A stretch of 64,000 nt of DNA, taken from the NCBI GenBank assembly GCA_049325595.1, contig JBMOLF010000001.1, positions 64,001-128,000 on the forward strand, given 5' to 3'. A model generated the notes under the pieces. That model searched no databases and was not told the DNA's origin. It was given only the letters and a program-made list of their open reading frames with translations. The translations under genes and the position numbers were made by a program. The DNA comes from Candidatus Babelota bacterium. Lineage in GTDB: Bacteria; Babelota; Babeliae; Babelales; Vermiphilaceae. Shown piece by piece: positions 28,507-32,988 of the stretch (position 1 is its first letter; the number at the start of each line of letters is the position of its first letter).

Positions 28507-29496
28507 TTATTTAACAATTTGTAAGAATCTATTCCAACGTACCCGTTTCCAAAAATCTATTGGATGTTTTATAAGATCAACAATCCACCAATCTTCGTTG
28601 CTATCAACTGACCAAATTCTGAACAAAATACGCGCATGGATATATTTACCATCAATAGGTCCAAAATAGCGACAATCTTGACTGCCACGACGATTATCTC
28701 CCATACACCAATATTGATTTTTACCTAATTCTATATAAAAATCATCAGTTCCATTCCAATAATTTTTGCTTCCCGGTTGCGGTGGACGCACACATTGTGG
28801 TTTAGTCTCTGCAACAAATGGTTCAATTAAAATTGGCTTGCCATCACGATATACAATACGATCAGGAGTTATGCGATAAAATGGTTGATCTTCATATGAT
28901 ACTGAAGGATCATATGAACGACGCACTTGATATTCATAACGCAATTGCGTAGCAACAAAGTCATTAAATTGTGATGAGTGTAAATAACCGTGAGAAATCC
29001 ATTTTAAAGCTTCTTGCTCAACGTTTTTTTGTGCAATCGCGGGATCAACCTTCCATAAATCAATTAAGGGATATTTATTAATATAAGGTTCATTAAGTTT
29101 TACATCATTAAGATATATTACTGGTTTGCCATCTTCAATTACCCCACGAATTTTATCACCCGGAATACCTATTACTCGTTTAGTCCAATTTGAAGGTCCC
29201 CATACATATTGCTGGAAAAGATAGGTGAGTGGATTTGATGAATAATTAAAAAGCGGGTCGTTAAAAGCAATTATTTCGCCACGTTGTGGAGCTCTAAATA
29301 GATAGGTAAATTTATCTGCAAAAAAACGTTCTCCAACTAACATAGTTGTTTCCATCGAACCAGTTGGTACTTGATAAAGACCAAATCCAATAGTTCTAAT
29401 TAAAAACACCACCGATAATAAAAAAATCATTTGTCCTAATGATTCCAAAAAACTTTTTGGTGGTTTATTAGTTTTATTTTTTGAAAATATTTGCAT
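28507..29496 (-). CDS. lepB: Signal peptidase I
   Basis: GSMETT (catalytic Ser), KRVIGIPGD (Lys), GDNR..S.D.RYFG. Confidence 0.95.
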   Translation of the reverse strand: MQIFSKNKTNKPPKSFLESLGQMIFLLSVVFLIRTIGFGLYQVPTGSMETTMLVGERFFADKFTYLFRAPQRGEIIAFNDPLFNYSSNPLTYLFQQYVWGPSNWTKRVIGIPGDKIRGVIEDGKPVIYLNDVKLNEPYINKYPLIDLWKVDPAIAQKNVEQEALKWISHGYLHSSQFNDFVATQLRYEYQVRRSYDPSVSYEDQPFYRITPDRIVYRDGKPILIEPFVAETKPQCVRPPQPGSKNYWNGTDDFYIELGKNQYWCMGDNRRGSQDCRYFGPIDGKYIHARILFRIWSVDSNEDWWIVDLIKHPIDFWKRVRWNRFLQIVK

Positions 29497-29538: not shown

Positions 29539-30186
29539 TTATACCAAAAAATACAAGGGATCAACTTGTCTGCCAAACATATGCACTTCAAAATGCAAGT
29601 GTGAGGCATCTTTCCCCTTTTTATGCACATGACCTGTTGACCCTACTTCACCAATCAAGGTTCCTTTTTGTACTTTAGTGCCAACTGGTGCATGTATTTT
29701 GTGTAAATGAGCATAACGAGTTCTATATTTATTGTTATGAACAATTTCTACCATATTCCCGTAACCAGAATAATAGCCGGATCGTATTACCACACCAGTT
29801 TCAGCTGCTTTTACGGGTGTACCTTGGGAAGCAGCCATGTCTATCCCCGTGTGAAATCCACGTGGTTTTTTTCTTGGACCAAAAAATGAACTCAACCAAA
29901 ACTGAGCCCGCTCAATTGGCCATGCAAGACTAATATCATGCTGTAAATTAGCTGGGCGGCTTGAATAAATTTTCTTCAATCGCCCGGAAGACACGATTGG
30001 TCGTGGCCGTTTAGGAATCACTTTGCGTTTGCGTTCTGGTACTTTTGGTTTAGTAGCGTCAAGCACCTGATCACTATAATCACGCCATTCATCAAGATCT
30101 AAATGGTTTAACAAATTATCTAGTTTTTCTGCTTTTAAATAATCAATCATTGATTGACGCAAATAACCAAGTTCGCGATTTACCAC
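29539..30186 (-). CDS. M23-family metallopeptidase (frame is open upstream to 30330; probably the C-terminal part of a frameshifted gene)
   Basis: HTGID (HxxxD), YAHL, HLHFEV (HxH) motifs. Confidence 0.92.
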   Translation of the reverse strand: MVNRELGYLRQSMIDYLKAEKLDNLLNHLDLDEWRDYSDQVLDATKPKVPERKRKVIPKRPRPIVSSGRLKKIYSSRPANLQHDISLAWPIERAQFWLSSFFGPRKKPRGFHTGIDMAASQGTPVKAAETGVVIRSGYYSGYGNMVEIVHNNKYRTRYAHLHKIHAPVGTKVQKGTLIGEVGSTGHVHKKGKDASHLHFEVHMFGRQVDPLYFLV

Positions 30187-30233
30187 GACAAAATTAGTTT
30201 CTTTGGCTTCATTTTCTGCTGATTGATTTTTTT

Positions 30234-30316
30234 GCGAGCGATCAACTGCACGAGCGACTTTAACAGCAAGGTGTGAATATCGCTCGCCAGCTACTTTCCC
30301 AGATTGTCGATCTCCT
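30234..30316 (-). promoter_or_regulatory. Putative -1 programmed ribosomal frameshift signal
   Basis: AGGAG (30316-30312), 11 nt, G_GGA_AAG (30300-30294), TAG, then GCGAGCGAT stem with complementary partners at 30258-30250 and 30242-30234. Confidence 0.65.
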
Positions 30317-30554
30317 GGGCAGCTAACGTATTATAGTCATGTAATACTTTTTTGAGCGCAACAATATATGATTGATATTCTTGCTTGAGCTCTAACATTT
30401 TATCAGCTTGTCGCACAAAAAAGCGGTATTCAGCATACAATAAAATACTTAAGCCACTGGCAACAAGGGTGAAAAATAAAAAAAAATATTTACTTAATTG
30501 ATTGATACATAGCTTAATGGTACTTCCCTATCCTGTAAGACGCATATTACTCAT
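30291..30554 (-). CDS. Unannotated N-terminal membrane-anchor/coiled-coil ORF of the M23 peptidase; start uncertain, in-frame TAG at 30530-30528
   Basis: Reads MSNMRLTG*GSTIKLCINQLSKYFFLFFTLVASGLSILLYAEYRFFVRQADKMLELKQEYQSYIVALKKVLHDYNTLAAQEIDNLGK*; ATG 30554 overlaps the upstream stop (TAATG). Confidence 0.6.
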
Positions 30555-31264
30555 TAGACCATTGATAATGCTTCATTATTATGCTCTATCCATCCTATTA
30601 CAGATCCTTGTTTAACTTTGCACCAAGTCTGTTGTTGTTCTTTTATTATAACCTCGGAGCCTTTTTTTAATGTCCCAACTATTGGATATTGCACTTGTGG
30701 CCCCGCATGTAAACAAATCTGATCAGTACAAATAGCAGTAACTGTTTGTGCTTGATAATATTTTGTATATAAAATAGTACCAACACAAAGCATATTCAGA
30801 CCAGCTAAGAGTACCAGTGTCTTCTTTTTTCGACAATAGGTATACCATATAATAAGACTAAAAAACAAAACCCAACTTATTAAAAAAATCAGTTGAAGCA
30901 TCCCTAGTGAAGTTTGACTCCATGTTTGGATTGCTATTTTTTTTTCTTGATCTTGTACACCAAGAAGCAAAGCAACATTATTAATTTGCTGTTGGGCTTT
31001 TTGATATATTGATGAAGTTGAATTTGTCTTTTGTGCTTTACGCCATGCCCATAATGCCTGTGGATAATTTTTTAAACAGTAATAACAATTACCAATGTTA
31101 TACCAAACTGCACTACTCTTTTGTTTAATTTCTTGATAAGTAGTCAATGCTTGTTCAAATTGTTTTTGTTTATACAAATGGTTACCACGCAAAAAAGTTT
31201 CTTGTGTTGTTGCACTCAAACAGATGCTTACCGCGAGCAATAGACTAAAGATCAGTCGTTTCAT
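30554..31264 (-). CDS. batE: BatE-like TPR + SH3 protein
   Basis: F..GN.LY, WYNIGN.YY TPR, TM helices, C-terminal SH3b-like W.KV....IGWI; start set at ATG 31264 with GGAGG RBS. Confidence 0.78.
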   Translation of the reverse strand: MKRLIFSLLLAVSICLSATTQETFLRGNHLYKQKQFEQALTTYQEIKQKSSAVWYNIGNCYYCLKNYPQALWAWRKAQKTNSTSSIYQKAQQQINNVALLLGVQDQEKKIAIQTWSQTSLGMLQLIFLISWVLFFSLIIWYTYCRKKKTLVLLAGLNMLCVGTILYTKYYQAQTVTAICTDQICLHAGPQVQYPIVGTLKKGSEVIIKEQQQTWCKVKQGSVIGWIEHNNEALSMV

Positions 31265-32988
31265 ACCAGCTCCTCCCAAAAAACTACCCATTTATGCGCA
31301 CGATCAAACAAATCAGCAAATTGATTTTTGTCTTTAAACAACCCAAAACGGGCTTCAGATAATTGTTTCCAAAAATCTTCCCATTGATGTTGTATTTGGC
31401 TAGGAACTGCACGATATTTAAATACTGATGCTATTTGATTTTCAAAATCTGCTTCTTGATCGATTGCCGTTTTTTGTATCACAAAAGATCTAACTTCTTG
31501 ATACAGCAATTGATAGTTCATTGTTTTTTGTGCTTTGCTAATGCTTTTCTGAACCTTTTTTAAGGCAAAAACATGAGATGACATGAATGGTAAACTTCCT
31601 TGTTGAAGCATGCGAAAAATAATTAATCCTCCCGAGGCTCCGGCAATGAGTATGCAAAGCATTATAAAAAAATTCCAGGGAATAATTTTTTCAGTTGTGG
31701 CATTCCATGGCCCCTCTGCTAATGCAGGTATTGCACTATCATCTTCTTTTTTTTCAGTTAACTCTTCTGGTCCTAATTGGTTTTCCTGAATCGGTTGATT
31801 ATTTTTTTGGTTATTAACCGCAATCACATGTATTGTTAAAGGAGAAGTAGTAAGAGTACGGTATGCTCTTTTTTGTGTGTCAAAATAGATAAATTTTTGT
31901 GCAGGAATTTCCCAATCACCTGCTTGTGTTGCTTGAATTATATACTCAAAAACTTTCTTTTGTTGATTATTATCTTGCTGAATTACCTGTTTTTTTGATT
32001 CGTACCATTTTAACGTGGGTGTCATGCCTTGCAAAGGTAAAATATCTAATCGATCAAAATCGCTATCGCCAATAAGCTCTAAAGTAAGAACCGTTCCTTC
32101 TCCTTGTTTAATAGCATGTGATTCTACCGATGCTTTAAAAGATTGGAACGTACCAACTGCTTGCGCGTGATGTTGTGTTTGCGGTAACTCGTTAACGCGT
32201 AATCGAACACCATTAGAATACACGCGTTTTTGCTCATTCATAGTTGCAAATACGGAAGTAAACATAGCAAAAAGATCATCTTTTTTACTTGGCATACTAT
32301 AATCAGCATAATAAGCAGGAATCAAGCAATTACCTGCAGATTGGGGATAAAGTTCCCAAGACCATTCAAAATATTCATAACTGGTCCCATCAATATCTTC
32401 AACGCCAGAAAAAGGACCTTGTTTTTTTTGAACAGTAAACGGACATTGATTTAATTCAGGCTCACCAACATGTCGCAGTTGTATCCGTTTATGACTTGTA
32501 TAAAATCGCAAAGTACATCGTATTTTTTCACCAACAACAACTTCAGTCTTATCACATGACAATCGCATAAATGCTTTTGCTTCTTTTGCTTTTTTTCCAG
32601 AATCAATATCAGCAACAACTTTGACGGTAACTTGATTAGAAACCAATGATTGATTGTTTGTTGTCAGTCGAGCAGGACCTAGAACAAACATGCCTTCTGC
32701 ATCTGCATAAACACGATAGTTAAAAGTAATGTGAGAAGCACCATTTATTGTTTGCATTTGAAATCCTGCAGGACGTATATGCATATGCTCATTACCAGAT
32801 AATTCAGGTTGCACATGAGTACTGGTAGCAGGAGCTATAGTTACTTGTGCTAAAAATGGTTGACCAACTAATGCCTGATTAAGCTGATCACCATCAGTAG
32901 TGGCAACATCTAAGCTAATTTCTTGCGCTGATAAGGTTATTGATAACACAAGAAACAGATAATATATATTACCAAGAATATTCTTCAT
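31261..32988 (-). CDS. batD: BatD-like protein
   Basis: Signal peptide, Ig-like repeats, V..LP....AVG.F, F.YFD....Y..L, C-terminal TM. Confidence 0.82.
   Translation of the reverse strand: MKNILGNIYYLFLVLSITLSAQEISLDVATTDGDQLNQALVGQPFLAQVTIAPATSTHVQPELSGNEHMHIRPAGFQMQTINGASHITFNYRVYADAEGMFVLGPARLTTNNQSLVSNQVTVKVVADIDSGKKAKEAKAFMRLSCDKTEVVVGEKIRCTLRFYTSHKRIQLRHVGEPELNQCPFTVQKKQGPFSGVEDIDGTSYEYFEWSWELYPQSAGNCLIPAYYADYSMPSKKDDLFAMFTSVFATMNEQKRVYSNGVRLRVNELPQTQHHAQAVGTFQSFKASVESHAIKQGEGTVLTLELIGDSDFDRLDILPLQGMTPTLKWYESKKQVIQQDNNQQKKVFEYIIQATQAGDWEIPAQKFIYFDTQKRAYRTLTTSPLTIHVIAVNNQKNNQPIQENQLGPEELTEKKEDDSAIPALAEGPWNATTEKIIPWNFFIMLCILIAGASGGLIIFRMLQQGSLPFMSSHVFALKKVQKSISKAQKTMNYQLLYQEVRSFVIQKTAIDQEADFENQIASVFKYRAVPSQIQHQWEDFWKQLSEARFGLFKDKNQFADLFDRAHKWVVFWEELV

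Follow-up and report, generated by a model that had tools for sequence, protein, structure and literature searches.

A membrane-anchored M23 peptidase gene of a Candidatus Babelota bacterium, apparently one base short at a slippery heptamer, and its possible -1 bypass

The stretch of DNA analysed here, called the window throughout, comprises 64,000 nucleotides (nt) from a Candidatus Babelota bacterium (assembly GCA_049325595.1, contig JBMOLF010000001.1, positions 64,001 to 128,000). Its minus strand carries a gene that is predicted, from its domains and homologs, to encode a membrane-anchored LytM/M23 peptidoglycan endopeptidase conserved in the Babeliales (Candidatus Dependentiae), the source names of the homologous proteins being Candidatus Dependentiae/Babeliales. 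In the window this gene lies in two overlapping frames, a membrane-anchor frame followed by an M23 frame, and a first-pass annotation had proposed that a programmed -1 ribosomal frameshift joins the two. The features at the junction, in window coordinates, are the following, where ORF stands for open reading frame, aa for amino acids and SD for Shine-Dalgarno, and where G001 is a genome of the same genus.

30291..30506, minus strand: anchor frame (frame B), a membrane helix and a long helix; 71 codons from ATC at 30506 to AAG at 30294, then TAG at 30293-30291
29539..30300, minus strand: -1 frame, linker and M23 domain; GGG AAA GUA... to the stop at 29541-29539, 253 codons
29557..29856, minus strand: Peptidase_M23 domain (PF01551, E 2.1e-30), residues 159-258 of the 263-aa frame
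30294..30300, minus strand: slippery heptamer G_GGA_AAG, in the X_XXY_YYZ register of the anchor zero frame; also in frame in G001
30312..30316, minus strand: SD-like AGGAG, 11 nt 5' of the heptamer, within the Gln-Glu codons CAG GAG
30291..30293, minus strand: zero-frame UAG, directly 3' of the heptamer
30243..30293, minus strand: predicted hairpin; core GCGAGCGAU (30287-30279) with GUCGCUCGU (30258-30250), alternative perfect partner AUCGCUCGC (30242-30234)

The anchor frame is open back to 30527 and ends CTG GGA AAG TAG, reading ...YFFLFFTLVASGLSILLYAEYRFFVRQADKMLELKQEYQSYIVALKKVLHDYNTLAAQEIDNLGK. Its N-terminal module matches the hidden Markov model (HMM) of the family at positions 4-65 (E 3e-14), and the membrane helix is evident from the sequence. 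The M23 frame is the -1 frame of the anchor frame; it is open from 30330, so that both frames overlap over 30330-30291. The downstream part matches HMM positions 79-310 as well as M23 structures (best E 5.3e-17), and it keeps the metal-binding motifs HTGID and HLH intact, that is, the HxxxD and HxH ligands of family M23. Six nt separate the heptamer from the inverted-repeat arm GCGAGCGAT (30287-30279), whose partners are GTCGCTCGT (30258-30250) and ATCGCTCGC (30242-30234). The layout that the first-pass annotation had read from the letters was thus confirmed in every coordinate, both for the membrane-helix ORF ending CTG GGA AAG TAG with M23 in its open -1 frame and for the heptamer, the AGGAG 11 nt upstream and the inverted repeats 6 nt downstream.

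The genome that holds the window (G000; 1.29 Mb, 24 contigs, 34.7% GC) was compared with its seven closest relatives, i.e. the single-contig G001, P0002, and a sister cluster (P0001 and P0122-P0125) that is known as proteins only. The DNA of the sister cluster was not found in two metagenome scans, one of which returned only a 43% relative. The M23 part of the window is 77% identical to that of G001 and about 84-86% identical to the sister cluster. In G001 a single 322-codon ORF spans the anchor and M23 parts, and P0001, P0122-P0125 and P0002 are likewise unbroken (...AQENDDLGKLASERYSQLAV...). The anchor frame matches these relatives up to GK and the -1 frame matches them from the very next codon (VAGERYSHLAV), which pins the lesion to the base or bases just 3' of the heptamer. 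At this point the window protein reads ...AAQEIDNLGK, continued in the other frame by VAGERYSHLAVKVARAV, and the sister protein reads ...VAQENDDLGK LASERYSQLAVRAARAV. At the DNA level the in-frame G_GGA_AAG of G001 is followed by 9 nt (TATTATAGC) before a shared GAG, whereas the window has 8 nt there (TAGCTGGC); the window letters over the break, within 30285-30305 on the minus strand, are GGGAAAGTAGC. If the reading steps back by one base on the heptamer, it gives a protein as long as those of the family and free of foreign residues. Together the two ORFs make up one conserved gene, of which each is a half. In this genome one base is missing immediately 3' of G_GGA_AAG, so that ordinary decoding stops at the UAG and yields the anchor only. 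Read-through of the UAG was rejected as an explanation, as the zero frame beyond it (LASDIHTLLL...) is not conserved and stops again.

The continuous G001 gene already carries both the heptamer and a hairpin (12 bp, 2 nt after the heptamer, -17.3 kcal/mol, z -2.86), so some of the -1 signals are older than the break; in G001 itself, shifting by -1 would yield ...GKVL-stop. In an AlphaFold2 model of the G001 protein (mean predicted local distance difference test score, pLDDT, 74) residues 2-66 form a single helix with pLDDT of about 90 or higher, and the heptamer Lys is residue 72, at the start of a disordered linker. The split therefore falls at a structural boundary, as would be expected if the gene had undergone fission and the anchor and M23 parts were two separate working proteins made with no recoding; GTG 30186 or ATG 30150 could start such a soluble M23 protein. 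The downstream frame, however, has no signal peptide or membrane helix, and its peptidase would stay in the cytoplasm, away from the peptidoglycan. Moreover, some 38 codons between the heptamer and GTG 30186 would go untranslated and yet are conserved with the sister cluster. We consider such a fission very improbable.

The heptamer, the SD-like AGGAG and the downstream hairpin all stand at canonical spacing, and each is rare. Among 856 conserved ORFs of G000 (263,983 other codons) G_GGA_AAG occurs in frame once, compared with 6.1 +/- 2.8 in codon-order shuffles; the wider class X_XXA_AAG occurs in frame 169 times. The scarcity of GGGAAAG was not accepted as avoidance of the slippery frame, because the heptamer is under-represented in all three frames (1, 11 and 0 observed versus 6.1, 24.8 and 6.4). 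AGGAG is found 366 times in 791,949 coding nt, corresponding to about 0.3% per 7-nt spacing window, and the 16S rRNA 3' end carries CCUCCU, ending ...GGAUCACCUCCUUUC, which can pair with it. The optimal spacing between an SD and a heptamer ranges from about 10 to 14 nt. The 69-nt segment 3' of the heptamer has a predicted folding energy of -21.5 kcal/mol (z -2.47); 3 of 200 dinucleotide shuffles are as stable, and so are no more than 0.6% of 3000 coding windows of the same length drawn at random from the genome. With mononucleotide shuffles the hairpin has a z of -2.39. TAG, the codon directly after the heptamer, is the rarest stop in the genome (104 of the 855 stop codons of the 856 ORFs). 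In E. coli, G_GGA_AAG is described as highly shift-prone (PMC5009743).

The reading we prefer is that of a functional -1 bypass, selected or merely tolerated, in a reversed dnaX-like arrangement in which the full enzyme would need the -1 shift; judged from sequence, we regard it as a good possibility that still falls short of being probable. A fraction of ribosomes would slip by -1 on the heptamer, with tRNA-Gly(UCC) moving from GGA to GGG and tRNA-Lys from AAG to AAA. Slippage would be promoted by base-pairing between AGGAG and the 3' end of the 16S rRNA, by slow decoding of the UAG in the A site, and by the hairpin that begins 6 nt further on. The shifted ribosome would then read GUA GCU GGC... 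and make the full enzyme, with the junction ...NLGK-VAGERY... and the same length as in the relatives.

The break could also be a consensus or sequencing error, in which case the organism's gene would be continuous and a base would have been lost in assembly. That the close relatives are continuous and that one restored base gives a family-length protein would both fit, as would the fact that the relatives' assemblies clearly hold such errors (about 60 in G001). To set against this, G001 ORFs of at least 90 aa were compared with G000 by tblastn (998 pairs), and a frame change was seen in 9 pairs, among which the M23 gene is the only real long gene, the others being ORFs of at most 105 aa, an antisense ORF, or breaks in G001. 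Since only the M23 gene is broken among the 998 comparisons, the G000 assembly is clean and essentially without frameshifted genes. The site itself is only G3A3, with no long homopolymer, and both NCBI and Logan list the identical 215-aa M23 ORF, on 2 contigs whose underlying reads may be shared. An error at this position is, in our judgement, unlikely. One further candidate for a frameshift in G000, q364 (C15), was discarded as an antisense ORF with stops in all frames. In the reverse comparison about 60 genes of the single-contig G001 (L022-L081) lie in two frames with respect to intact G000 ORFs, which suggests many indel errors, or real decay; annotation and pseudogene counts in that genome need care.

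The two halves of the gene were also looked at for signs of decay. In a three-taxon comparison the M23 part has 8-10 changes unique to the window and 11-13 unique to the sister, and the anchor part 1-5 and 1-3, respectively; that is, there is no rate acceleration on the window branch. The nonsynonymous divergence (dN) to G001 is 0.18, and because the synonymous divergence (dS) is saturated and not computable, the three-taxon comparison was used alone. The relaxed constraint by which a pseudogene is recognised was not found, as the 253 codons of the -1 frame hold no further stop or lesion.

The two neighbouring genes are given below; gene order around the M23 gene is identical in G001.

28507..29496, minus strand: signal peptidase I (Peptidase_S26, lepB), intact downstream neighbour, used as control gene
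30554..31291, minus strand: TPR and SH3 membrane protein, upstream neighbour

In a search at E <= 1e-20, an ortholog was found in 180 of 261 genomes of the order. We read 100 ortholog loci, made up of the 20 best matches, 20 picked for short open frames and 60 further ones from the survey list. Of these, 77 are continuous and 16 split, 4 are truncated at the end of a contig, and 3 differ at the N-terminus; one of the splits (G083) spans masked N's and was excluded, leaving 15 split loci, the window included, among 92 informative ones. The lepB control was unbroken in the same genomes among the 150 matches listed, the exceptions being a match at a contig end and a short frame in a genome that is 52% complete. 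The tract, codon and stop counts across relatives that follow are descriptive and are not tests, since kin are not independent.

A tract of nine to thirteen A (A9-A13) is kept in the linker of 46 of the 77 continuous orthologs, in at least 8 families of the order. Runs of at least 10 A or T number 51 in the linker zones versus 4 in the other 260.9 kb of those loci. In the linker, KKK is encoded by pure AAA in 33 of 35 cases, compared with 3 of 38 elsewhere in those ORFs and 2 of 15 in flanking ORFs; codon usage predicts 45%. Across the G000 genome, 15 of 104 such triplets use AAA only, although 57% would be expected to, and runs of A8, A9, A10 and A11 number 279, 30, 3 and 1. A stop in the -1 frame comes no later than 5 codons beyond the tract in 96% of cases (control 47%), and one in the +1 frame no later than 2 codons beyond it in 50% (control 15%). 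These ortholog loci are L003-L020 and L082-L161, in which the linker lies about 560-830 nt before the M23-gene stop. Of the splits, eleven coincide with A10-A11 runs and one with an in-frame A_AAA_AAG (G049); the remaining three, those of the window, G209 and G253, are at no run. In each of two species pairs, L086 (G045) with L090 (G046) and L093 (G139) with L098 (G138), both members belong to one genus and have an out-of-frame A10/A11 tract at an identical position, which reflects either repeated under-calling or a real persistent state; in one of those genera, G041-G044 are in frame with A12-A13.

In the alignment, the heptamer Lys of G001 occupies the column where the K-run starts in 20 of 31 K-run orthologs. 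The window heptamer stands 762 nt before the stop, and most tracts start about 610-780 nt, many of them 740-780 nt, before it. From these positions we infer that the window heptamer is the positional homolog of the family A-tract. Downstream of the A-tracts hairpins are lacking (mean z -0.32; z <= -2 in 3 of 57); in the window's genus, each of the two genomes carries one after the heptamer. The window site, being G3A3 only, falls below the run of roughly nine or more bases associated with transcriptional slippage or phase variation, and the gene has A7 and T9 runs elsewhere.

On the preferred reading, the position of the window heptamer would therefore be no accident. The linker would be an ancestral site for two products, namely the anchor by itself and the enzyme attached to it, and its A-tract with stops close by in both other frames resembles Thermus dnaX. 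In the window's genus, heptamer and hairpin would have taken the place of the A-tract, and the window would show the layout in reverse, the long product being the one that depends on shifting. A wider reading would make the linker a selected slippage site throughout the Babeliales, with two proteins per gene. In most lineages the A-tract would act by transcriptional slippage or as an on/off switch, in the window's genus the heptamer and hairpin would act through a ribosomal shift, and an AmiC-like amidase may have a similar site at its domain junction. We put this wider reading forward as a doubtful extension of the bypass.

A number of results weigh against these readings. First, the break is present in 0 of the 7 closest relatives and selection for it cannot be shown. 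It follows that the break is lineage-specific and no old conserved frameshift and, because the nearest relatives are continuous, it does not qualify as a conserved programmed frameshift in the strict sense. The first-pass annotation had asked for a conserved -1 break in orthologs and had named uniformly continuous orthologs as evidence against itself, a situation to which the seven relatives come close. The AGGAG is absent from G001. What stands of the proposed joining is that anchor and M23 belong to a single conserved gene, that the break maps no further than a codon from the heptamer, that all three signals are there, and that the site matches in position the A-tract conserved across the order. 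Second, among windows with GC of at least 0.45 as many as 5.9% are as stable as the post-heptamer fold, i.e. the rarity of the hairpin is partly a matter of local GC. Third, the tRNA set of G000 has a tRNA-Lys(CUU) beside the tRNA-Lys(UUU). In E. coli the slipperiness of A_AAG has been linked to a single tRNA-Lys, and two Lys tRNAs have been suggested as the reason why Thermus uses RNA polymerase slippage (PMC5009743); from this comparison, AAG should be less shift-prone where tRNA-Lys(CUU) is present. Fourth, the anchor ORF has no ATG, GTG or TTG ahead of its membrane helix, and the ATG of G001 aligns with ATC 30506-30504 in the window, which may be a second lesion. Fifth, in the survey at E <= 1e-20 the gene was not found in five families (f12 0/35, f7 0/12, f17 0/7, f19 0/6 and f8 0/3), and its loss there is possible. 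Sixth, split genes make up 5 of 8 tract-bearing genomes with at most 3 contigs, 2 of 12 with 4-10 contigs and 4 of 37 with more than 10; since the split fraction rises with assembly contiguity, many of the A-tract splits are probably homopolymer errors of long-read assemblies. Finally, an in-frame heptamer near the column is missing in 23 of 29 tract-less orthologs, so that a two-product design would not be universal, and GGGAAAG may possibly be just a remnant of the tract.

Alternatively, a recent one-base deletion, perhaps together with the change from ATG to ATC, may have inactivated the gene. The cassette would then consist of older coding features, and a useless anchor fragment would be made. 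A break unique to the lineage, a heptamer and hairpin already present in the continuous G001 ORF, the lack of a canonical start codon and the presence of tRNA-Lys(CUU) all agree with it, and so do the apparent dispensability of the gene in some lineages, given an ortholog in 180 of 261 genomes, and the second M23 paralog of the genome (G000:C10). On the other hand, the M23 gene would be the sole frameshifted conserved gene seen in G000, and a random deletion would have had to hit about 30 of 966 nt beside one heptamer, at what is also the slippage position of the family. The missing ATG may be shared with the sister cluster and tolerated. The lack of any other lesion in 253 codons and of excess amino-acid change also speaks against decay, although a very recent inactivation would still fit. 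We hold inactivation to be possible but rather unlikely, and retain the -1 bypass as the preferred reading.

The start of the anchor ORF bears on both the bypass and the inactivation. The ORF listing places it at TTG 30440, inside the membrane helix; an exact look-up of this TTG-started 49-aa ORF in a protein collection gave no match, which is uninformative. The gene calls of the sister cluster also begin downstream (P0124 starts MFIFF...), from which it follows that the missing ATG may predate the break, that is, it may be shared with the sister, tolerated, and older than the break. One other feature lies here.

30490..30510, minus strand: mini-ORF of ATG, 5 codons and TAA, out of the anchor frame and in the M23 frame

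The ATG of the mini-ORF (30510) is 4 nt upstream of the ATC, which the mini-ORF overlaps. A +1 event joining this ATG to the anchor frame at AAG TAA A was considered and dropped, as re-pairing is impossible and the alignment of window and G001 has no indel there.

Runs of A were also seen in other genes. The AmiC-like amidase gene (Amidase_3) of G000 (G000:C15:218317-219459; L165/L166) has an A10 run at a junction just before the catalytic DxGHG. Among its relatives (L167-L195) an A9-A13 run stands 18-45 nt before DxGHG in 10 of 30 loci; two more amidase loci carry such a run with the motif not located, and the gene appears in pieces there in G008, G019 and G036. Other A-runs of at least 10 in the 792 kb of conserved coding sequence of G000 are confined to three genes (L162-L164), namely an MsrA-MsrB fusion, between its domains (G000:C10:116402-117394), an Fpg-like glycosylase, ahead of the zinc finger (G000:C17:6629-7372), and a secreted thioredoxin-like protein, after the domain (EKKKE; G000:C10:29308-29940).

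If the preferred reading is right, these amoeba-dwelling bacteria would have a means of adjusting how much membrane stalk is made relative to the anchored peptidoglycan-cutting enzyme, and slippage would have switched between transcription and translation in a gene other than dnaX. Annotators would also be warned that 'split' M23 genes in Dependentiae are not simply pseudogenes. Should the family-wide reading hold as well, the whole range of dnaX solutions would be repeated in cell-wall hydrolases. If the reading is wrong, the window shows a small genome, intact in other respects, in which a single gene has recently suffered a frameshift mutation. A full-text literature search on Dependentiae and frameshifting returned only unrelated work, and no search was aimed at M23 hydrolases and recoding. 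To our knowledge, few chromosomal non-mobile frameshift genes are known in bacteria, among them dnaX, prfB, copA and csoS2, and none is a cell-wall hydrolase.

The closest known parallel in layout is the dnaX gene. As described in PMC5009743, the E. coli gene for tau and gamma combines a heptamer of the form X_XXA_AAG with an SD-like element some 10 nt before it, a hairpin some 6 nt after it and a stop at or next to the site, and its two products share their N-terminus, all of which is found, or would be expected, in the window. For a few bacteria the opposite dnaX layout has been proposed (PMC5009743); there the longer protein is the one that depends on shifting and, as in the window, the zero-frame stop comes immediately after the site. 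The differences are that the dnaX frameshift is conserved in relatives and experimentally shown, whereas the break in the window occurs in one lineage and is read from sequence alone; that E. coli has a single tRNA-Lys and G000 has two; and that dnaX encodes a replicase subunit rather than a cell-wall hydrolase. In Thermus dnaX, according to the same source, transcriptional slippage takes place at a slippery run that has stops close by in either shifted frame (PMC5009743). The A9-A13 tract of the window's relatives, with its stops in both non-zero frames, and the presence of two Lys tRNAs resemble the case of Thermus thermophilus (PMC5009743). Unlike in Thermus, the window has only A3, on which this mechanism cannot act, and slippage in the relatives is deduced from sequence statistics. 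As for dnaX, some homologs of the window gene would seem to rely on a homopolymer and others on a heptamer with its hairpin.

The G-T genes of phage lambda use the same heptamer, and their long fusion is likewise made by -1 shifting (PMC5009743). They are, however, a phage gene pair, with a frameshift conserved across many phages. Shifting at G-T is of low efficiency and is not known to require a comparable pair of SD and hairpin. Slippage at poly(A) tracts reportedly rescues frameshifted genes in insect endosymbionts, as Tamas and colleagues are said to have found in 2008. In Citrobacter rodentium the chromosomal tssM gene is described as interrupted and as giving two length variants by slippage (PMC4256274). 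These rescue cases resemble the present one in concerning AT-rich, host-associated, reduced genomes, but they involve long A runs and act at transcription, whereas the window heptamer would act at translation. Lastly, the -1 frameshift of E. coli copA concerns a chromosomal, non-mobile gene, and there a 70-aa N-terminal module is made through a -1 site at a domain boundary (PMC5009743), much as the anchor of the M23 gene ends at the start of its linker. In copA, in contrast to the window, it is the zero frame that yields the long product, and the function of its short product is known (PMC5009743).

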